Source: Candidatus Aenigmatarchaeota archaeon
GTDB lineage: Archaea > Aenigmatarchaeota > Aenigmatarchaeia > JACPZZ01
Length of the DNA stretch: 64,000 bases
Assembly: GCA_043801595.1 (NCBI GenBank)
Contig: JAZDLW010000021.1
Coordinates: 89,128 to 153,127 of the forward strand
Direction: 5' to 3'
In this document: in pieces, positions 3,749 through 59,325 of the stretch
Layout of the letters: each line of letters starts with the position of its first letter
Position numbering within the stretch: position 1 is the first letter of the stretch
Program-made: the position numbers and the translations under genes
The notes under the pieces: generated by a model
What the model saw: the letters and a program-made list of their open reading frames with translations, nothing else
The model's database searches: none
What the model was told of the DNA's origin: nothing

Positions 3749-6700
3749 ATGGATTTGTTTGTAAAAGATGTAATTGATAGGTTTAGTCAAGGTTTAACAT
3801 TAGACGGTGAGAAGCGTATTTTTGAAGATGGGAAGGAATTATCTTCCGATTTTCTAAAAGAACGTGCTAAACCAGAATCCTATACAATAGAACTAATTAT
3901 ACGAAAAATATTCGATAAATTAGAAGTAGATATATTACCAGAAAAACAAATAGAAGTTTTGGATTTGGAACTAAATGAAAAATTACGAAATGTTGATTTC
4001 AGAATAAAGTCTAAAAATCTAAAAATTTTAGTAGAAGCAAAGCCTGTAAATTCCGATCTAAAAACCGATTCTTCTTCAGGCGCTGTAAATCAAATAAAAG
4101 GGTTATTCAAAATGACAGAAGTTAGCAATAATTACGATTTTGGAATAGCGACAGATGGATTGAAATGGATATTCATAGATAATTCTGGAAAGAAAACGGA
4201 AGAGATTGATATACGAGATAGTTTCGATAGACTAAAAGAGTTAATTTTAGGAAAAGAAAAAGTTATTTCAAGAGAAACCGAAGAAGAAATTTCTAAAAAA
4301 TTTTATGATTGGTACAATGCGTTGTTACATGGAGGTAAATACAAGAATCATCTAAACATAACAAAAAATATCTCAAAAAAATATTGTTTGGTAGAGAATA
4401 TTTTATCTGCGCCAATTGTGGAGGAAAGAGAACAAATTGCGCAGACAATAATGGATCGTTTGATTTTCATAAAATTTTTACAGTCGAAGGGTATAATAAA
4501 CTTTGATGTGTTAAACTATTTGTCGAACTTAGAAGAAAAGAGTCTTAATGATACGTTAAGACAATTGTTTTTCAACGTCCTTAACACCGAAAAAGGAAAA
4601 CGTGAAGAAATAGATCATAAATTGAATAATATACCATATCTTAATGGAAGTTTATTTGTAAGAACCGAAGAAGAGCTTAAAAATCCTGATTATAGGATAA
4701 GGGCTTATATATTAAAAGAAATTATAACGTTTTTAGATTCATTCAAGTTTATACACGTTGAACGATTATCAAACCAGAAAACTTTGGATCCCGAGATTCT
4801 AGGTTACATATTCGAGCAAGCGATGACAGCTTCCGATCGGCACGGAACGGGAGCTTATTATACTTCAAAAGAAATAACCAATTACATATCACAAAATACA
4901 ATTTATCCGATAATAGTTAAACGTGCAAATGAATATTTAAGAAAAATAGGGTACAAAGAAGGAGAGTTAATAAAAACTATAGATGACTTGTTCGATAAAA
5001 TTAATCCTCCGTCAATAAAGAACATAATGACTGAGGTCGTATATAATTTAAAAGTATGCGATAATTCTTGTGGTTCTGGTGCATTTTTACTTGCTGTTGG
5101 AGAAATTCTGTTTAATTTGTGGAAACGGGCTAAGGAAATAGTAAATCTTCCGATGCCTGATTATTGGTTCAAGAAAGAAATTATTAAAAATTGTATTTAT
5201 GGTGTTGATAAAAACCCAAATGCGATAGAAATAGCAAAATTGAGGTTGTGGTTGTGGATAGTTGATTCGTATAGTCCGGAAAAATTTGAGCCGTTACCGA
5301 ATATAGAATATAACGTGCGTTGTGGAAACAGCCTGATTGGTTATATTAGCATAGAAAAATTTGAGCAGAATAAGACAGATCTTAACGATTATGGAGATAC
5401 TTTAACTGAAAGATCTTTGTATAAAACATTGGCGCGAAGAGCGGATTTAATAAGAAGATATAAGTCGTTATCAGGCGATGGTGCAAAGTTATTGAAAAGC
5501 GAGTTAAATCGTATAGATGATGGTATTAAACGACTTCTAGATAATAAACTATTTCTAGAAATTCAAAAGGAAATCAAAAATGTGAAGTTCGAAGACATTA
5601 GAAGACTCAGAGCATTTCACTGGGGATTTGAATTTGGAAATGTTTTTAAAGATAACAACTCTGAGAGAGGTTTCGATGCAATGGTAGGTAATCCACCATA
5701 CCTAGAATCCAGAAGTCCTCAATTTACAGATGAAATGAAGGATATGATACAATACAGTGTTAAAAAAGAATTTCCTGAGGAAAACAATCTGATTGGAAGA
5801 GGTTGTGATTTGCTTGTATATTTTTATATTAGAGGATTAAGCATAATTAAAAGCGATGGATTTATATCGTTCATCACACAAAATTCATGGCTAGATACTG
5901 ATTATGGAAAGATGTTTCAACGCTTCATTTCTAATAACACCAATGTTAAGGCTATTGTTGATAGCGATTTCAAATATTTCAGTAATGCCAATATCAATAC
6001 AGTAGTAACATTTTTTGTAGGTAATAAAAAGTGTGTGGACAGTAAAAATAAAACTTTATTTTTAAATTACCACATTCGATTTGGAGAAATTAATTATATG
6101 CTACCTGTTATTTCTGACGATATGGAACAACCAAAAAAAATATCCATAAAAATCTTTGATCAATCTGAATTGAAAAATACCGAATTTAAGTGGGGACTTT
6201 TGCTTTTTTCAGATAATAGATTTTTAGAGATTTTGAGTATAATGAATAAGAAAGGTAAGAAATTGGATGATTTAGGATATGGTTGTGGTCAGGGACTTAA
6301 CATAACTAAGGATCACTTAATTGATATGAATAAAATGAAAGAATTGGGTATAAATTCGAAATCAATGGTTCCAATAATGTCATCAGAAGATGGTGCACCT
6401 TACAATCTTTCCAAGACACAATTTTATTTAATAAATAAAGATAAGTTAAGTTCTGATAAACTGCAACAAATTAAAAATCAAAGTATAAAAATTTTAGATA
6501 AAATTTATTCAACAAGATTGCGACCAAACCTCATACTTCCAAGAGGAATAGGCAGGCATTTCTGTTGTATGAACGAAGTAAATGCATTTACTACGAGTAT
6601 GGTAGAAATATATGTTAAGTCAAACGATTATGATAAATCTGTAAGATTATGGACTTTTTTAAATTCTTCTTTATTATGGTTGCTGAGGGAGATCTCTGGA

Positions 6701-6988
6701 AGAAAGAATCTTGGTGGAGGAATGTTGAAGGCAGAAGCTACGGATTTAAAGAATTTTGAGTTGTATTTTGATTTAGATGTTAAGAAATGCAAAGAAATTT
6801 ATAGTATGACGATGGGGAAAGAAGCCGAGCCAGCATTATTGGAGATTGGCACAACGGCACACAAGATGATCGATAAAATGGTTTTTGATTATTTAGGTTT
6901 AAATAACAATCAGCGAAGTTATGTAATTGAAAAATTAAAAGATGTCGTAACTAGAAGAGAAAGAAGATCCTCGAAGGTAAGTGTTTAG
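3749..6988 (+). CDS. Type IIG restriction-modification fusion enzyme (N-terminal PD-(D/E)XK endonuclease plus gamma-class N6-adenine methyltransferase plus C-terminal TRD)
   Basis: The N-terminus carries D..x13..E-A-K (VDFRI...ILVEAKP). Methyltransferase motif I is VCDNSCGSGAFLLAVG and motif IV is NPPY (MVGNPPYLE). The 1,079-aa size and architecture resemble MmeI/Eco57I-type enzymes. The coding sequence is very AT-rich. Confidence 0.7.
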   Translation: MDLFVKDVIDRFSQGLTLDGEKRIFEDGKELSSDFLKERAKPESYTIELIIRKIFDKLEVDILPEKQIEVLDLELNEKLRNVDFRIKSKNLKILVEAKPVNSDLKTDSSSGAVNQIKGLFKMTEVSNNYDFGIATDGLKWIFIDNSGKKTEEIDIRDSFDRLKELILGKEKVISRETEEEISKKFYDWYNALLHGGKYKNHLNITKNISKKYCLVENILSAPIVEEREQIAQTIMDRLIFIKFLQSKGIINFDVLNYLSNLEEKSLNDTLRQLFFNVLNTEKGKREEIDHKLNNIPYLNGSLFVRTEEELKNPDYRIRAYILKEIITFLDSFKFIHVERLSNQKTLDPEILGYIFEQAMTASDRHGTGAYYTSKEITNYISQNTIYPIIVKRANEYLRKIGYKEGELIKTIDDLFDKINPPSIKNIMTEVVYNLKVCDNSCGSGAFLLAVGEILFNLWKRAKEIVNLPMPDYWFKKEIIKNCIYGVDKNPNAIEIAKLRLWLWIVDSYSPEKFEPLPNIEYNVRCGNSLIGYISIEKFEQNKTDLNDYGDTLTERSLYKTLARRADLIRRYKSLSGDGAKLLKSELNRIDDGIKRLLDNKLFLEIQKEIKNVKFEDIRRLRAFHWGFEFGNVFKDNNSERGFDAMVGNPPYLESRSPQFTDEMKDMIQYSVKKEFPEENNLIGRGCDLLVYFYIRGLSIIKSDGFISFITQNSWLDTDYGKMFQRFISNNTNVKAIVDSDFKYFSNANINTVVTFFVGNKKCVDSKNKTLFLNYHIRFGEINYMLPVISDDMEQPKKISIKIFDQSELKNTEFKWGLLLFSDNRFLEILSIMNKKGKKLDDLGYGCGQGLNITKDHLIDMNKMKELGINSKSMVPIMSSEDGAPYNLSKTQFYLINKDKLSSDKLQQIKNQSIKILDKIYSTRLRPNLILPRGIGRHFCCMNEVNAFTTSMVEIYVKSNDYDKSVRLWTFLNSSLLWLLREISGRKNLGGGMLKAEATDLKNFELYFDLDVKKCKEIYSMTMGKEAEPALLEIGTTAHKMIDKMVFDYLGLNNNQRSYVIEKLKDVVTRRERRSSKVSV

Positions 6989-9885: not shown

Positions 9886-11160
9886 TCATCCGATCTCCTT
9901 GAATCCCGTATATTTTATTAGGGGCCTCGGAACTTTTATATATCCGTCAGCCGACTGGAAGTTCTCCATTATCGCGACCAATACGCGGTCCGTGACCGCT
10001 GTCGAGTTAAGCGTATGCACGAATGACGATGGCGCAGCGCCTTCCTTCTCGCGCAACTTGATATTCAACCGTCGGGCCTGGTAATCCGTACAATTTGAGC
10101 ATGAAACGATTTCCCGATACTTCTGCTGCACTGGCATCCACGCTTCCACATCGTATTTCTTCGCAGCCACTGTTCCGATATCGCCGGTGCATATGTTTAC
10201 GACGCGGTACGGAATCTTCAGCGACTTTGTGATAGCCTCCGCATTATCAATAAGCTTCTCGTGCCACGCCCATGAATCAACGGGGTCGCAGATAACGATC
10301 TGCTCAACCTTTCCGAATTGATGCACACGAAAGATTCCTTTCGTGTCCTTGCCGTGCGAACCGGCCTCTTTGCGGAAGTTCACGCTGAAACCGGCGTATG
10401 TCAGCGGAAGATTTTCCTTAATTATCGTTTCATCCATGTGCATCGCTGTTAATGGGTGTTCTGAAGTGGCGATCATATGCAGATCCTCGCCTTCAACCTT
10501 GTACAGAACGTCGTTGAAGTCAGCGAGATCGACGACGCCCCTGTACGCATCGGTCTTCATCATGTACGGCGGCAATACGAGAGTGAATTTCTTTTTTGCC
10601 AGAAAGTCTATTGCGTATCTCATCAACGACATTTCCAATAACGCAAGTTTCCCTTTTATGAAATAAAATCTTGCGCCGGATATTTTGGCCGCGCGCTCAA
10701 TGTCTATCATACCGAGTTTTATTCCGAGGTCGATATGATCCTTCGCTTCAAATTTTTGTTGCTTGATGTTTCCCCATTTGCGGACAACGACGTTATCAGC
10801 GTCGCTTGCGCCGACCGGCACGGATTCATGCAGTATGTTTGGAATCCGCATCAGCGCGCCTTGCACTTCTGCCCTGAGTTCGCCGGCCTGCTGATCCAAT
10901 AACCTTATAGATTCTGAGACGCCGACCATTTCCCTGATCTTCGTTTTCGCGTCTGCACCCTTCCTTTTTATTTCCGCTATCTCCGTTGTAACAGTGTTCC
11001 TCTTGTTCTTCAGCGAATCGGCCTGCTGCATTAACTCGCGCAACTTCTGGTCGTTGCGTATTATCTGTTCCAGCAGTTTAAGCTTGTCAGTATCATTGCG
11101 CTTCTTAAGATCATTTCTTATCAAATCAGGATTTTCACGAATCAATCTTATGTCAAGCAT
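9886..11160 (-). CDS. serS: Seryl-tRNA synthetase
   Basis: N-terminal coiled coil (MLDIRLIRENPDLIRNDLKKRN...). Class II motifs FRKEAGSHGKDTKGIFRVHQF and C-terminal GYIKVP. Confidence 0.9.
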   Translation of the reverse strand: MLDIRLIRENPDLIRNDLKKRNDTDKLKLLEQIIRNDQKLRELMQQADSLKNKRNTVTTEIAEIKRKGADAKTKIREMVGVSESIRLLDQQAGELRAEVQGALMRIPNILHESVPVGASDADNVVVRKWGNIKQQKFEAKDHIDLGIKLGMIDIERAAKISGARFYFIKGKLALLEMSLMRYAIDFLAKKKFTLVLPPYMMKTDAYRGVVDLADFNDVLYKVEGEDLHMIATSEHPLTAMHMDETIIKENLPLTYAGFSVNFRKEAGSHGKDTKGIFRVHQFGKVEQIVICDPVDSWAWHEKLIDNAEAITKSLKIPYRVVNICTGDIGTVAAKKYDVEAWMPVQQKYREIVSCSNCTDYQARRLNIKLREKEGAAPSSFVHTLNSTAVTDRVLVAIMENFQSADGYIKVPRPLIKYTGFKEIG

Positions 11161-13466: not shown

Positions 13467-13568
13467 ACTACAGACCTCTTCTTTATGATTTGAAAAGATT
13501 GGTATTAAAATACAGATTTTGCTTAAGCCCTTGAAAAAGGCTTATCCGATTAAATTTTTTAGAAAACA

Positions 13569-13668
13569 ACGGAAACCAATTGGTTTCAACGAAAAACCGA
13601 AGTTTTTCGTGCATGGGAAAACTCGGTTTCCCCATGCCGTGCATAGGAAATTCTAATGATTTCCTATG
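13569..13668. repeat. Intergenic tandem-hairpin repeat, locus A (four consecutive stem-loops)
   Basis: GAAACCAATTGGTTTC palindrome; CGAAAAAC-cgaa-GTTTTTCG; GCATGGGAAAAC-tcg-GTTTCCCCATGC; CATAGGAAA-n9-TTTCCTATG. It abuts the 3' end of the minus-strand tRNA. Confidence 0.7.
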
Positions 13669-13676
13669 AAGTTTAA

Positions 13677-13771
13677 ATGCGGCGGCCGGGATTTGAACCC
13701 GGGTTGTGAGCTTGGAAGGCTCGCGTTTCCTGGACTTAAAAAAGTCTCTTACCAGGCTGGACCACCGCCGC
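13677..13771 (-). tRNA. tRNA, probably Gly (UCC), carrying a roughly 19-22 nt insertion at a non-canonical position between the D-arm and the anticodon stem
   Basis: Acceptor stem GCGGCGG/CCGCCGC. T-arm CCGGG-UUCAAAU-CCCGG. Anticodon hairpin GAGC-CUUCCAA-GCUC. Total length about 95 nt. The 6-nt GUCCAG is directly repeated around the insertion. Confidence 0.55.
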
Positions 13772-13882
13772 AATTTCTGGTTGAAACAGACATTGTCTGT
13801 TTCTATCTGCTTATGCGCCAGCCAGCAACTGCATCCATTTCGATCTATTTACTATCCTTTTCTTTTTAAGAATTGATTGTTT

Positions 13883-14360: not shown

Positions 14361-14523
14361 TGGGATTGCAGGGATTTGAACCCTGATTGGCTGGTATCTT
14401 CAAAATCATCGGCTTGCGCCTCGTATCTCCAACAATAGACCGAAACAGATGCAATTTTGTATGGCATCTGTTTCTGTTTGCCGCTCTGGAGCCAGCTGTC
14501 TTACCTGATTAGACCACAATCCC
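14361..14523 (-). tRNA. tRNA-Trp (CCA) with a roughly 90-nt intron at the canonical 37/38 position
   Basis: 5' exon GGGAUUG-UG-GUC..GAC-A-GCUGG-CUCCAG, 3' exon A-CCAGC-CAAU-CAGGG-UUCAAAU-CCCUG-CAAUCCC-A. The intron contains an 8-bp hairpin (ACAGAUGC/GCAUCUGU) and a GAUGA element. Confidence 0.75.
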
Positions 14524-15656: not shown

Positions 15657-15718
15657 ATTATCCAATTGTTCCCGTACCAACCAGCAGTGAAACGTTTCAG
15701 ATAAGCTTTCTTCAAACA

Positions 15719-15767
15719 ACGGAAACCAATATGGTTTCCGTGCACAGGAAACGTCGCGTTTCCTGTG
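15719..15767. repeat. Intergenic tandem-hairpin repeat, locus B
   Basis: ACGGAAACC-aatat-GGTTTCCGT followed by CACAGGAAACG-tcg-CGTTTCCTGTG, then gaaagcttaagcaaa. Confidence 0.7.
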
Positions 15768-15831
15768 AGAAAGCTTAAGCAAAGAATTTCTTTAAAAAGC
15801 AGCTTTAAATTTCCTGTTTAGCATCAAGAGT

Positions 15832-16851
15832 ATGATGAGACTGCGCCCAGTCATTGCTCTACTGGCTATATGTCTGCTCGTAATTCCTTACAGCGGATTA
15901 GCCGCGGGAATACAGTTTTACGAGATAACTACTGACATACTTGAGAACGGGCTTGCAAAGAACGAAGTGAAAATCGCTTTTGATGTGCAGCAACCCGGAA
16001 AGATAGATTACCCGATCATAGGCGACGTAACGGATTTTTCATGGGCGGCAAACTTTAACGCAACGTGCGATCTTGCAAAACAAGGGGCGACTTCGATAAT
16101 AAGCTGCGATCTGGCCGGTGTAAATAAAACGCACAGGAGCCTGTCGCTTAATTACACAGCATCCGGATTTGTGAGGCAACTTGAAAAAGACAGATGGATT
16201 TACAGGTATGATTTTCAGAGCTCTGTCCCTGTTACAACGCTCTCTATCGTGGTCAGGCTGCCCGAAGGAAAAGGTCTTATTACCAGCGAAGACGGCATAA
16301 TTTCGGGGGGCTTGCTGCCTTACGCGCCTTCTTATGGGGATACGAGAACGGACGGAAGAAGAATACTCATTGATTGGGCCAGAAACAACTTTACCGCAGG
16401 CGATTCGTTGAGTGTGTCTGCTGTGTACGAAAATATCCAAATAAACGCGTTAACAACGTTTTTACCACTGTTTCTGACTATAGTTATCATACTAATATCC
16501 ACTACTGTTTACTTTTACCTAAAGAAGACCAAAGTGATAGTCAGAACTGAGGAAACGCTGGATTCCGTACTTCTTATACTTAAACCTGACGAAAGAAAGG
16601 TTATTGACTGCTTATTGAGCGAAAACGGGGAGAAAATGCAAAGAAAGATTGTGCACGAAACAAATTTCTCAAAAGCAAAGGTTTCGAGACTTATTTCGGA
16701 TTTAAAGCGCAGAGGTATCATATATGTAGAGGAAAGAGGGCGAACCAATCGAATATTCTTGAAAATAAAGCCAAAGGAACCTTTTGGAACAATTAAACCC
16801 TCTACGGAGGCTAATAACGAGGCAAATAGGAATGATACTCCCAAGAGCTAG
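15832..16851 (+). CDS. Membrane-anchored protein: signal peptide, ectodomain, single TM helix, cytoplasmic winged-helix (MarR/TrmB-like) DNA-binding domain
   Basis: N-terminal signal peptide, TM helix LFLTIVIILISTTVYFYL, and C-terminal ...RKVIDCLLSENGEKMQRKIVHETNFSKAKVSRLISDLKRRGIIYVEERGR (HTH/wHTH-like). Confidence 0.5.
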   Translation: MMRLRPVIALLAICLLVIPYSGLAAGIQFYEITTDILENGLAKNEVKIAFDVQQPGKIDYPIIGDVTDFSWAANFNATCDLAKQGATSIISCDLAGVNKTHRSLSLNYTASGFVRQLEKDRWIYRYDFQSSVPVTTLSIVVRLPEGKGLITSEDGIISGGLLPYAPSYGDTRTDGRRILIDWARNNFTAGDSLSVSAVYENIQINALTTFLPLFLTIVIILISTTVYFYLKKTKVIVRTEETLDSVLLILKPDERKVIDCLLSENGEKMQRKIVHETNFSKAKVSRLISDLKRRGIIYVEERGRTNRIFLKIKPKEPFGTIKPSTEANNEANRNDTPKS

Positions 16852-19534: not shown

Positions 19535-19596
19535 GGAGTCGGGTTGAGTCGAAAGACGCATACCAATGGTATGCGTCAATCTGCTCGCCCGACTCC
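19535..19596. terminator. Compound hairpin 3' of the S-layer-like gene, containing an ACGCATACC-WWT-GGTATGCGT palindrome
   Basis: Outer stem GGAGTCGGG/CCCGACTCC. Inner perfect palindrome GACGCATACCAATGGTATGCGTC at 19555..19577. Followed by an AT-rich stretch. Confidence 0.5.
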
Positions 19597-25576: not shown

Positions 25577-25671
25577 TTTAAAACAAGTAATGTATGAAAT
25601 TTAAGAGTATTAAATAAGCTTTTCAGAAAAGCTTAAGCAAAAGATGATTGAAAAATTTAATCAAGAAACGA

Positions 25672-26082
25672 TCAGGCCTTGCTTTCGGCAACGGCTTTCT
25701 TCTCTGCAATATTCTTTTGCGCCTCCGGTTTCGCCTCGGTTTTCTTTGCAGCGGTTTCTTTTGGCGCTTCAACTTTTGCAGCCGCCTTTTCAACCTTAGT
25801 TCTAGCTGCCTTCTTTTCGGCATATTTGGAAGTGTCCACGAGATCGGCAAAAACTCTATCGCCCTCTTTCCTGACTTTTATCCTTATCTTCGCAGGCGGA
25901 TGCGAAACGCCACGTGACCATACGAACTCGTTTATTTCCGGGCTTATCACAACATCGTCCGCTCTGAGCATTTTAGAAACGAATGTCCTTATGCTCTTGA
26001 CAGCAGCCGGCGATTTCCTGCGCCTGCTGGTTTTCGAAAAAACCCTGCGAAGGGGAATATTGTAAACTTTTTCATCTGTCAT
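25672..26082 (-). CDS. rpl31e: Ribosomal protein eL31 with a Lys/Ala-rich C-terminal extension
   Basis: YNIPLRR...AVKSIRTFV...EFVWSRGV..PPAKIRIKV. The start is chosen at MTDEK, which forms an ATGA overlap with the eL39 stop. Confidence 0.8.
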   Translation of the reverse strand: MTDEKVYNIPLRRVFSKTSRRRKSPAAVKSIRTFVSKMLRADDVVISPEINEFVWSRGVSHPPAKIRIKVRKEGDRVFADLVDTSKYAEKKAARTKVEKAAAKVEAPKETAAKKTEAKPEAQKNIAEKKAVAESKA

Positions 26083-26233
26083 AGCTTGATGTGGCTCCTT
26101 CTCCATTTCTTTATCTTGTCAACTTTTATTCTTCTTGATCGCGCACGCTTTAATCCGAATTTGCGTATGTCTGCCCATCTGGGAGCTGTGGATATTCGGC
26201 CGATTCGCGCCAATTTCCTTTTTTTGCTTATTC
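26079..26233 (-). CDS. rpl39e: Ribosomal protein eL39 (GTG start; missing from the ORF track)
   Basis: Hand translation gives (M)VNRISKKRKLARIGRISTAPRWADIRKFGLKRARSRRIKVDKIKKWRRSHIKL. It has the eL39 pattern KK.RLA...P.W....G.R...RR.WRR.KL and the conserved position between PDCD5-like and eL31. Confidence 0.65.
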
Positions 26234-37144: not shown

Positions 37145-37154
37145 CGTTTCAACT

Positions 37155-37177
37155 AGACACGCATCCGGGATGCGTGT
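37155..37177. repeat. Palindromic hairpin of the ACGCAT family, in the tRNA-Ala/tRNA-Ile spacer
   Basis: GACACGCATCC-ggg-ATGCGTGTC. Confidence 0.55.
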
Positions 37178-37287
37178 CAGTCTACCTCTCCCTTACAGGT
37201 CTATCCTTCCTTAATACACGTTTTGTATATACAAAACCAAAATCATTTTGGGGTTTCAAAAGACCTTTTTATAAAAGGGCTTTTGTG

Positions 37288-37407
37288 TGGACCGGTCGGG
37301 ATTCGAACCCGAAGCCTCGACGTCTCTCGAATTTCTTTTGATTAACCTTTTCCTTTTGAAAGAAAAGGTTATGCGAACGTCGCGATCTACCGTTGATCTA
37401 CCGGCCC
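37288..37407 (-). tRNA. tRNA-Ala (CGC) with a roughly 47-nt canonical-position intron
   Basis: Carries the G3:U70 identity pair. 5' exon ...G-CGACG-UUCGCA; 3' exon A-CGUCG-AGGCU-UCGGG-UUCGAAU-CCCGA-CCGGUCC-A. The intron holds a 9-bp hairpin AACCUUUUC/GAAAAGGUU. Confidence 0.75.
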
Positions 37408-37418
37408 AAACGCTGACT

Positions 37419-37501
37419 GACGCATACCATTGGTATGCGTCTAGTTACCACGCACACCATGTATGAATCTAGCTGTCACAACGCATACCCGAGGTACGCG
37501 T
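37419..37501. repeat. Two ACGCATACC-family palindromes upstream of the minus-strand tRNA-Ala
   Basis: GACGCATACCATTGGTATGCGTC at 37419..37441, and ACGCATACC-cgag-GTACGCGT at 37481..37501. Confidence 0.55.
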
Positions 37502-37538
37502 CAATCGATTACTTCCTTTTTGTTCTTCTTATTAATTT

Positions 37539-38366
37539 ATGAATTATATCGTTTATGTGAATGATATGGCAAAACTCACCTTCTTGGGAACCGGTGGCGG
37601 AAGGTTTTGCATGGCCACCCAAACGCGCGCAACCGGCGGATTCCGGTTGGAAATGGACGGAACAAACTTTCACATTGATCCCGGGCCTGGTGCGCTTGTA
37701 AGGGCAAAACAATACAATGTGGATGTCAAGAACACTGACGTTATCATGCTATCGCACGTGCATATCGACCATTCAAACGATTGTAATGCCATCATAGACG
37801 CAATGACAGAAGGCACGAAAGGCCAAAAAGGCATGCTCGTCGGCAATATTTCTTCGATCAAAGGCTACGACAACAACAGCCCGGCAGTGCTGAAAATCTA
37901 CCTGAAAACACTGGAAAGCGTCAACGTGCTGAAGGCGGACGAAACGATAAACCTAAAAAACATAATTGTCAGGGCAACACCCACCAAGCACTCAGACCCT
38001 ACGGCAATCGGGTTCAGGATAGAAGGCTCAAAGGTGATATCGTACACTTCGGATACGGAATACTTTCCGGAACTGAAAAAATATCATAAAAACGCCGACG
38101 TACTGGTAATAAACACGCTGCGACCAGATAATGACGAGTGGCCGCTTCACATGAACACGGATGACGCAATAAAACTTATAGTAGATGCGGAGCCGAAACT
38201 TTGCATCTTTCAACACTTCGGAATGAAGATGATAAGTGCTGGTCCTGAAAAACAGGCCAGAAAGGCGAGCAAGGAAACCGGCGTAAAGGTAATCGCCGCA
38301 GAAGACGGAATGAAAATAGACCTTGACAGGATTGACGCATCGTTGAGCAAGTACATACGCAAATAA
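37539..38366 (+). CDS. Metallo-beta-lactamase-fold hydrolase (RNase Z/ElaC-related superfamily)
   Basis: LTFLGTGGG...HIDPGPG...SHVHIDHSND (HxHxDH). The start is likely at the internal MAKLTF. Confidence 0.55.
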   Translation: MNYIVYVNDMAKLTFLGTGGGRFCMATQTRATGGFRLEMDGTNFHIDPGPGALVRAKQYNVDVKNTDVIMLSHVHIDHSNDCNAIIDAMTEGTKGQKGMLVGNISSIKGYDNNSPAVLKIYLKTLESVNVLKADETINLKNIIVRATPTKHSDPTAIGFRIEGSKVISYTSDTEYFPELKKYHKNADVLVINTLRPDNDEWPLHMNTDDAIKLIVDAEPKLCIFQHFGMKMISAGPEKQARKASKETGVKVIAAEDGMKIDLDRIDASLSKYIRK

Positions 38367-38371
38367 TTTCA

Positions 38372-38439
38372 ACGAAAAACCGAAGTTTTCAACGAAAAGC
38401 TTCGGCTTTTCGTGCATAGGAAAATGTAATTTTCCTATG
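38372..38439. repeat. Intergenic tandem-hairpin repeat, locus C
   Basis: CGAAAAAC-cgaa-GTTTTC (imperfect); ACGAAAAGC-ttcg-GCTTTTCGT; CATAGGAAAA-tgtaa-TTTTCCTATG. Confidence 0.7.
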
Positions 38440-38497
38440 TCGTAAGCGCTGTTTCAAATATTTAACAAGAGGATAAGTTACAAAGAAAGGCGATTCG

Positions 38498-59050: not shown

Positions 59051-59068
59051 ATAAACTTTCTTAGAACA

Positions 59069-59194
59069 ACGTAAAGCGAAGCTTTACGTGCAAAGGAAAC
59101 GCATCGTTTCCTTTGAGAAAGTTTAATCAAATAAGCTTTTAGTACAACGGAAAGCAAAGCTTTCCGTGCATAGGAAATTCGAAAATTTCCTATG
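59069..59194. repeat. Intergenic tandem-hairpin repeat, locus D (two complete units)
   Basis: ACGTAAAGC-gaa-GCTTTACGT; CAAAGGAAACG-cat-CGTTTCCTTTG; ACGGAAAGC-aaa-GCTTTCCGT; CATAGGAAATT-cgaaa-AATTTCCTATG, then gaaagcttaagcaaaacg directly abutting tRNA-Met. Confidence 0.7.
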
Positions 59195-59202
59195 AAAGCT
59201 TA

Positions 59203-59325
59203 AGCAAAACGTGCCTTGGTGGCTCATCGGTAGAGCGTCCGACTCATAAGTTCATTATGAGTGACGAGCCTTAACGGCTGTGAAGTGGTATCGGAAGGTA
59301 GCGAGTTCAATTCTCGCCCAAGGCA
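59203..59325 (+). tRNA. tRNA with a CAU anticodon (elongator Met or Ile2) and a roughly 41-nt canonical-position intron
   Basis: GCCUUGG-UG-GCUC..GAGC-G-UCCGA-CUCAUA|intron|A-UCGGA-AGGUA-GCGAG-UUCAAUU-CUCGC-CCAAGGC-A. It is not an initiator tRNA: it lacks the three G-C pairs in the anticodon stem. Confidence 0.75.

Follow-up and report, generated by a model that had tools for sequence, protein, structure and literature searches.

Elements of the IS200/IS605 type use a strict target of 4-5 nt and are expected to show a strong replication-linked orientation bias; in IS608, the feet of the hairpins lie 10-19 nt from the ends. Gene-less derivatives of IS200/IS605, the palindrome-associated transposable elements (PATEs), have been described in haloarchaea (PMC3119063). 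REP sequences are defined by a GTAG (or CGTC) tetranucleotide tag (PMC3733652), and MITEs have been reported at high density in some DPANN genomes (PMC11602168). In this report, we describe a family of two-hairpin units from Candidatus Aenigmatarchaeota, for which the closest known systems are bacterial REP/REPIN-RAYT on the one hand, and IS200/IS605 with its gene-less palindromic derivatives on the other; the family is a member of neither as defined.

The analysis started from a window of 64,000 nucleotides (contig JAZDLW010000021.1, positions 89,128 to 153,127), in which an earlier note had pointed out four loci with hairpins whose stems seemed to be maintained by compensatory changes. Our main finding is that this two-hairpin family is real, and that its strongest features, all absent from the earlier note, point to a mobile repeat: nesting at a single site, insertion into the arm of a host hairpin, and presence or absence between genomes.

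The two-hairpin unit and its distribution

Read on the plus strand, as first written, the recurring unit is CAACG-hairpin 1-CGTGCA-hairpin 2-YRTG, with a length of 49-51 nt and individual hairpins of 21-27 nt. Hairpins of the kind announced are present at all four loci (4/4), which together hold six complete units and one solo hairpin 1, on the plus strand throughout (Table 1); this amounts to about one unit per 10 kb of window. The junction motif CGTGCANNGGAAA, where the end of hairpin 1 is joined to the start of hairpin 2, has six exact matches and one single-mismatch match in the window, all on the plus strand; allowing at most one mismatch, these 7 matches compare with 1.56 expected, and 7 was reached in 0 of 100 shuffles. 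Perfect hairpins with a stem of at least 8 bp number 49 in the window versus 7.4 in shuffles, and lie mostly in the four loci. Compared to shuffles, the folds of the units have z values of -6 to -8.7; that of locus B is a three-way junction, with z -7.1 on one strand and -8.7 on the other. Elsewhere in the family, other arrangements are encountered, namely an inverted doublet (L001; L numbers designate the loci retrieved outside the window), solo hairpins and partial units.

Table 1. Units and host hairpins in the window. The minus strand listed for units is the strand on which every wobble pair reads G·U.
Feature	Position	Strand	Length	Model match	Description
Locus A	13567..13668	-		60 bits, 13584-13638 (-)	Outer unit 13567-13586 + 13637-13668, split by inner unit
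Locus A, inner unit	13587-13636		50 nt		Flanked by GGTTT and CCGT (outer hairpin 1, 3' arm)
Locus B, core unit	15717..15767	-	51 nt	69.6 bits	Hairpin 1 ACGGAAACC/GGTTTCCGT; hairpin 2 CACAGGAAACG/CGTTTCCTGTG
Locus C	38370..38443	-			Solo hairpin 1 (38370-38389 + 38440-38443) split by a complete unit
Locus C, inner unit	38390-38439		50 nt	67.6 bits	Between GTTTT and TCGT
Locus D, unit D1	59067..59115	-	49 nt	69.1 bits	
Locus D, unit D2	59145..59194	-	50 nt	70.3 bits	
Host hairpin, locus B	15703..15790	.			5' arm AAGCTTTCT 15703-15711; 3' arm AGAAAGCTT 15768-15776; tail AAGCAAAGAATTTC 15777-15790
Host hairpin, D1					AAACTTTCT 59053-59061 / AGAAAGTTT 59116-59124
Host hairpin, D2					AAGCTTTT 59133-59140 / AAAGCTT 59195-59201
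Unoccupied host hairpin	25615..25645	+			TAAGCTTTT-CAG-AAAAGCTTA + tail AGCAAAAG
Unoccupied second-type host flank	37237..37285	+			CCAAAATCATTTTGG, then CAAAAGACCTTTTT-ATA-AAAAGGGCTTTTG

When 185,579 species, each represented by one genome, were scanned for the exact pattern, 25 genome loci were obtained, all from Aenigmatarchaeota assemblies (groundwater MAGs): 24 of the 25 are titled Candidatus Aenigmatarchaeota, and the last one (L019), titled 'uncultured archaeon', is identical to L020, which comes from such a MAG. With a looser pattern, 11 metagenome contigs or loci were obtained, at least three of them from the Hainich groundwater site, and the viral contigs searched in the same way gave 0 matches. 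Within the collections scanned, the family is confined to Candidatus Aenigmatarchaeota genomes and groundwater metagenomes. The genes of the window share 70-80% protein identity with syntenic genes in Aenigmatarchaeota MAGs. Its intron-containing tRNAs also mark the source of the DNA as archaeal.

A covariance model trained on 27 copies was run on the window and 35 loci (~320 kb). It detected 46 full copies at 57 bits or more, one weaker match at 42.3 bits, and many partial ones. Searched with Rfam at the gathering threshold, the window and 34 loci yielded tRNAs only, and a permissive search (E<=5) of locus D gave nothing relevant. At neither threshold did the unit match any family, and literature searches found no description, so that the family is apparently new, as the earlier note had supposed.

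Covariation and the constrained strand

Covariation was assessed on 47 model-aligned copies, 45 of them distinct, in an alignment that is fitted to the model; the pairs are obvious in the raw sequences too. Standard pairs occupy 99.6% of the 899 stem cells versus 89.2% in column shuffles, and pairing falls to 46-53% when partners are slid by one column. Double-sided changes are found at 12 of 20 pairs and in 97 cells, a result matched by 0 of 500 shuffles. These statistics show that the central observation of the earlier note, that both arms of a stem change together, is correct. Near-invariant positions are the stem bases ACG/CGT, CAYAGG/CCTRTG and GGAAA/TTTCC, and the junctions; upper stems and loops are variable, and loops are even inverted (TTCG versus CGAA) between close copies. 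One orthologous pair of loci, L003 and L015, is occupied in both genomes, and the two copies differ by one compensated pair. A caution of method applies here, as clean covariation within a repeat family does not on its own point to a host RNA gene.

Wobble cells are strictly asymmetric: on the reverse complement of the strand first written, there are 14 G·T and 0 A·C (binomial p = 1.2e-4). The strand of each model match had been set by hairpin order and junctions (a gap of ~40 bits), and not by wobble pairs. At locus A, hairpin 2 of the inner unit has one G·T on the minus strand. It follows from the 14 to 0 asymmetry that the molecule under constraint is single-stranded, whether RNA or DNA, and corresponds in sequence to the minus strand of the window; the strand as first written is probably the wrong one, all 14 wobble cells being G·T on its opposite.

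This asymmetry bears directly on the proposal, already in the earlier note, of a protein-binding cruciform, in which a double-stranded palindromic operator or cruciform would be bound by a dimeric protein such as a global regulator or a nucleoid protein. The near-perfect intergenic palindromes with conserved outer half-sites (ACG...CGT and CAYAGG...CCTRTG) speak in its favour. Half-site positions, however, covary instead of staying fixed, and mismatches that are exclusively G·T on one strand are meaningless for duplex recognition, which leaves the asymmetry unexplained. Moreover, the nesting reported below destroys the host palindrome, and some copies reside in tRNA introns. We judge a double-stranded binding site to be very improbable.

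Nesting, host hairpins and turnover

The units had been described as tandem hairpins. Two-hairpin units they are, but at loci A and C the arrangement is not a simple tandem one and consists of nested insertions. Locus A reads CAACGGAAACCAATTGGTTT^[CAACGAAAAAC...CCCCATG]^CCGTGCATAGG..., and excising the bracketed 50 nt restores a perfect unit. This nest was read by eye, and the others by scripted peeling of the innermost unit. L032 could be peeled three times and L026 twice, each removal of an innermost unit of 49-51 nt leaving a complete unit behind; L035, L008 and window locus C, which becomes ACGAAAAAC-CGAA-GTTTTTCGT, each gave one such result. The nesting site is constant (TTT^YCGT, in the 3' arm of hairpin 1), nests are up to three deep, and nested insertions are without target duplication. 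The inner copy has the orientation of the outer copy in 8/8 nests. Since inner and outer units differ in sequence, the nests are insertions of other family members and not local duplications, and it is this Russian-doll insertion that gives the appearance of tandem hairpins.

It is conceivable that DNA-level processes alone, that is, local duplication, template switching and arm-to-arm correction, gave rise to non-mobile palindromes with neither an enzyme nor a function. If one arm of an extruded hairpin were corrected by the other, 'compensatory' changes would appear with no selection involved, and the TTCG versus CGAA loops would find their place here, as loop inversions are typical of DNA palindromes. 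The genome is also rich in other hairpin families, and the transposase search (~320 kb, approximate queries) was negative. Such processes nevertheless do not account for nucleotide-precise ends, for the same integration point in at least eight nests whose inner copies differ from their hosts, or for the 50-nt unit being found at unrelated loci in at least five genomes; nor is a strict strand asymmetry of wobble pairs expected from symmetric correction. We consider this explanation improbable.

The surroundings of non-nested copies were analyzed by deleting the core, joining the flanks and folding them, with permuted flank pairs for comparison. Joined flanks form a hairpin much more often than permuted ones, with a mean of -8.7 kcal/mol versus -5.7 (p = 6e-8), and the junction falls within the same arm in 29 of 46 copies versus 21.5% of permuted pairs, mostly at a distance of 2-5 pairs from the loop. 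The three bases after the junction are A/T (at +1, T in 31/46 and A in 13/46) and the bases upstream of it vary, this A/T run being the sole shared adjoining sequence. Inserted into a hairpin arm, the unit is enclosed by an outer stem, which accounts for the three-way junctions in the folds of B, D1 and D2.

The host hairpin is itself repeated (ATAAGCTTTT-loop-AAAAGCTT-AAGCAAAG) and has compensated variants, AAACTT/AAGTTT, AAGCCT/AGGCTT and AACCTT/AAGGTT; the host stem of D1 is a compensated variant of that of locus B, and the host tail of D2, AAGCAAAACGT, reaches the tRNA starting at 59213. The earlier note had seen GAAAGCTTAAGCAAA after several copies. It is indeed there, but as the 3' arm and tail of the host hairpin, a separate repeat that also exists without a unit, as between rpl31e (25672-26106, minus strand) and the next minus-strand gene. 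A second type of host carries the unit in L003, L008, L011, L015, L017 and L021; its unoccupied flank in the window lies 2 nt from the 3' end of a tRNA-Cys gene (37288-37407, minus strand), and a further unoccupied copy of the first host repeat is found within the 51-nt intron of the same gene. This intron-containing tRNA-Cys (anticodon GCA) scores 52.7 bits when the region is searched alone, whereas neither ARAGORN nor the gathering-threshold Rfam search of the whole window detected it; nearly all of its intron is the host-hairpin repeat copy (CCTTTTCTTTCAAAAGG AAAAGGTTAATCAAAAGAAATTC).

Other hairpins are present in the window. A second hairpin repeat, GACGCATACC-loop-GGTATGCGTC, occurs at 19555-19577 and 37419-37441, with variants at 37156-37178 and 37481-37503, and the intergenic region 37146-37538 is packed with hairpins of this second type. 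They have the ACG...CGT foot in common with hairpin 1 and a different, compensated upper stem, and one copy starts with CAACG; they may be solo members of the same superfamily. A third type, GAAACAGA(C/TGC)-loop-...TCTGTTTC, has one copy (13783-13803) just upstream of the tRNA at 13677-13772 and another (14440-14475) in the long intron of the tRNA at 14361-14523 (minus strand). Finally, a palindrome resembling hairpin 1, ACACGAAAG-ATTC-CTTTCGTGT, resides at 10325-10346 inside an open reading frame (9886-11160, minus strand), with a weak model match of 10.8 bits; it could be due to chance or be an intragenic solo hairpin.

Copies are gained or lost between sister genomes. The orthologous intergenic site in L012 is without the locus B block (~105 nt including the host hairpin), and L009 and L025 are likewise empty where their orthologous sites would hold locus C. 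The TATA-like GCAGCTTTAAATTTCC beside locus B and the start codon are kept in the empty L012 orthologue. This element, within 15790-15831 of the window, is centred ~25 nt upstream of the ATG at 15832, a spacing consistent with a putative archaeal TATA box of a leaderless or near-leaderless mRNA. We also considered the unit as a promoter module and rejected it: in the host hairpin, the A/T-rich loop is only ~15-22 nt away from start codons or tRNA 5' ends, a distance too short for an archaeal TATA box, and the better TATA-like element GCAGCTTTAAATTTCC is outside the locus B insertion.

In L014 and L024, host hairpin and unit are inside tRNA introns, in the sense of the tRNA on the wobble-defined strand; in L001, the inverted doublet is directly 3' of a tRNA. 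The window A and L024 copies were examined as positional orthologues and rejected as such, the former being 3' of a tRNA and the latter in a tRNA intron. The two tRNAs themselves (window 13677-13772 and L024 7491-7653, both minus strand; anticodon region CCTTCCAA) are orthologous and have introns at different positions: in the window, a short hairpin intron (GACTTTTTTAAGTC...) in the D-arm region, and in L024, a ~100-nt intron at the canonical 37/38 site, which contains the two-hairpin unit. This suggests gain, loss or movement of an intron between close species.

The L008 units lie within the left-end region of a TnpB remnant, and a paralogue of this remnant, in L023, has no units. N-terminal remnants of TnpB (IS605 family; MRTYKFRIYPSKKQ...) were observed in L008 (6713-6889, minus strand), L023 (4282-4428, plus strand), L001 (1-174, minus strand) and L014 (707-835, plus strand), that of L023 continuing in frame into an unrelated open reading frame downstream of it; they are decayed IS copies in Aenigmatarchaeota MAGs. 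With such remnants near copies, we considered that the unit might represent the ends of a TnpB element, yet the L023 paralogue without a unit rules against this, and indicates that the unit was inserted into the left-end portion of the IS.

All copies had been reported to sit immediately 3' of a gene or tRNA end. This is true of the window, where units follow plus-strand genes at B, C and D (locus C starts 3 nt past the stop codon of a beta-lactamase-fold gene, 37539-38366) and a minus-strand tRNA at A (8 nt from its 3' end, at 13677-13772), but not of the family, whose copies are also found upstream of start codons and between divergent genes, in either orientation with respect to their neighbours. 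The check for a conserved flanking orientation, which the earlier note had recommended, gave a mixed result. All window copies are on one strand, and neighbouring copies across contigs are 12 same to 6 opposite. On the wobble-defined strand, three of the four window loci are antisense to both flanking genes; over the family, this strand points the same way as the downstream gene in ~24 of the 35 cases that could be scored.

In one subfamily, the copies stop 2-5 nt short of the start codons of genes for NDK, AMP phosphorylase, MetAP, KsgA and prefoldin, and the outer stem spans the purine-rich sequence ahead of the ATG. The genes next to copies are housekeeping genes with no relation to one another, and those downstream, which also include Rrp4, FtsZ and SAH hydrolase, have no common function. 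As they belong to no common pathway, a metabolite riboswitch is unlikely, and a riboswitch or shared leader was rejected on these grounds and on mixed orientation. In L008 (region 3809-6737), a likely form III RuBisCO large-subunit gene, called by eye from the translation, is followed by a unit and then by an AMP phosphorylase-like gene, which we take to form with it the archaeal AMP salvage pair. The spacer between the two genes measures 106 nt and is filled by the unit, which begins 33 nt past the stop codon and stops 17 nt short of the start codon.

The main rival to a mobile repeat is a host-functional structured RNA module whose dispersal would be secondary. Its two hairpins and outer stem would be transcribed either within the transcripts of neighbouring genes or independently, and would serve to end, terminate or stabilise a transcript, to mask the ribosome-binding region in a leader, or to give a processed small RNA. 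Several of the above observations would be well explained in this way: the strong covariation with G·U-only wobble on one strand, the stable three-way-junction folds, the prevailing co-orientation with downstream genes, the fixed spacing of the start-codon subfamily, the compensated change by which the L003/L015 orthologues keep their pairing, the copies abutting tRNA genes, and, on the wobble-defined strand, a UGUUUU frequently present after hairpin 1. A fixed placement at 3' ends or as a terminator, however, does not hold for the whole family, given the copies upstream of start codons, between divergent genes and in tRNA introns, in either orientation. A terminator or leader also gives no reason for nesting at a fixed nucleotide, and fits poorly with antisense placement at three of the four window loci, with copies missing at orthologous sites of sister genomes, with copies in introns that are spliced out, and with unconserved loops flipped between close copies. 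No recognisable promoter was seen by sequence inspection at a sensible distance. On these grounds, we regard a host RNA module as rather unlikely. As with bacterial REPs, it need not exclude a mobile repeat.

Movement and comparison with known systems

Precise ends (5'-CAACG ... YRTG-3' as first written), self-nesting, oriented insertion into hairpin arms, and gain or loss between sister genomes argue for a mobile repeat and against a gene-end signal. The lack of terminal inverted repeats and target duplication in the core unit, with hosts restored exactly when nests are peeled, the tolerance for introns and IS remnants, and the narrow lineage argue in the same direction, and the two copies in tRNA introns (L014 and L024), as safe-harbour sites, count in favour of it. 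On balance, we think that the unit is probably a non-autonomous miniature insertion element of a REP/IS200-IS605-like kind, moved via a single-stranded intermediate.

On this reading, the unit integrates, always the same way round, into an arm of a hairpin that was already there, the target being either hairpin 1 of another copy (TTT^YCGT, hence the nests) or an A/T-run hairpin of the second repeat family. The intermediate would be single-stranded with the minus-strand sequence, its hairpins folding and being recognised by their structure and conserved feet; both the strand-specific wobble and the upper stems, conserved in structure only, imply that recognition acts on a single strand in folded form. 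The enzyme would be provided in trans, and most plausibly would be an HUH/Y1 transposase of the IS200/IS605-RAYT type, as with bacterial REP/REPIN and the palindromic elements derived from IS200/IS605. Stems would stay paired since only folded copies propagate, possibly with the help of hairpin-templated repair, and effects on neighbouring genes, on transcript ends or leaders, would be secondary.

As no GTAG/CGTC tag, no fixed target word and no cognate transposase was found, we only infer the HUH mechanism. A tblastn search for Y1/RAYT with approximate queries (an IS608 TnpA and a generic RAYT-like sequence), a weak test, gave no match in the ~320 kb covered, less than 10% of each genome, and no tnpA-bearing full-length relative with the ends of the unit was seen among the fetched loci. 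Three further observations could count against movement of this kind: nearly all copies, L003/L015 included, have intact stems, which could equally reflect selection on a host RNA; the fixed 2-5 nt spacing to start codons could mean a cis-acting role; and the 12 to 6 ratio of neighbouring copies gives no clear sign of the strong replication-linked bias of IS200/IS605-type movement.

A bolder and more tentative version, possible though doubtful in our view, is that of a structure-homing miniature element of a kind not known before, in DPANN archaea, in which a 50-nt two-hairpin strand would be inserted into any suitable hairpin arm, the target being chosen by shape. This single strand would consist of DNA, or of RNA cut out of transcripts or introns, and no target would suit the element better than its own hairpin. 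If true, this would be the first REP/RAYT-like, or a wholly new, hairpin-dependent mobilisation system described in Archaea.

Should the unit be mobile, its density in the window (~1 per 10 kb) would extrapolate to the order of 100 copies in each of these very small DPANN genomes. It would be a minimal element, whose information content comes down to two hairpins and a few foot nucleotides, and which targets DNA or RNA by shape. It would offer a compact natural substrate for finding its enzyme, hairpin-specific HUH enzymes and their relatives being of interest as ssDNA tools, and would extend REP-type biology from bacteria to archaea. For annotation, the family accounts for a share of what lies between genes and within tRNA introns in Aenigmatarchaeota MAGs.

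Several known classes were compared to the unit and rejected. It shares with integron attC sites a structure-based recognition, one recombinogenic strand and imperfect hairpins; by inspection, RYYYAAC/GTTRRRY boxes are absent, and there is no cassette array or integrase context, the copies being scattered among housekeeping genes. The defining boxes or contexts of CRISPR repeats, replication-origin ORB boxes and C/D or H/ACA sRNAs are also absent on inspection. The archaeal bulge-helix-bulge motif has two 3-nt bulges with a 4-bp helix between them, and inspection shows that the ends of the unit cannot pair with its flanks in the geometry of such an intron or splicing-endonuclease substrate; the copies of L024 and L014 are carried as passengers inside a larger, canonical tRNA intron.

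Like classical MITEs, the unit is small, non-coding, intergenic, multicopy and lineage-specific, and the composite of host hairpin and unit has 'inverted repeat' ends, a superficial likeness: these flanking repeats differ and covary between copies, and hence form a stem and not transposase-binding ends. Unlike classical, DDE-dependent MITEs, the unit core has no terminal inverted repeats and no target-site duplication. This absence is shared with IS200/IS605 and PATEs, as are a hairpin at each end, an orientation-specific insertion, an implied strand-specific single-strand structure, and precise boundaries compatible with seamless excision. The target of the unit differs, however, in that it looks structural (a hairpin arm by an A/T run) instead of being a fixed tetra- or pentanucleotide, and its hairpin feet lie 0-2 nt from the ends, in contrast to those of IS608, in a unit of only ~50 nt.

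The comparison with REP/REPIN/BIME-RAYT has two sides. The feet of the unit are CAACG, CGTGCA and TG, with no GTAG or CGTC; the unit is archaeal (DPANN), and is a head-to-tail pair of two different hairpins and not an inverted doublet; it integrates precisely into a hairpin arm with deep nesting, and no RAYT was found. As an imperfect intergenic palindrome of 20-40 nt in many copies, it nevertheless corresponds to REPs in form. Both are short intergenic palindromes (20-30 nt) with many copies and a lineage-specific distribution, and both have compensatory stem changes and conserved nucleotides at the hairpin foot. Both, finally, occur as singletons, clusters and inverted doublets, and in both, recognition is presumed to take place on folded single strands.
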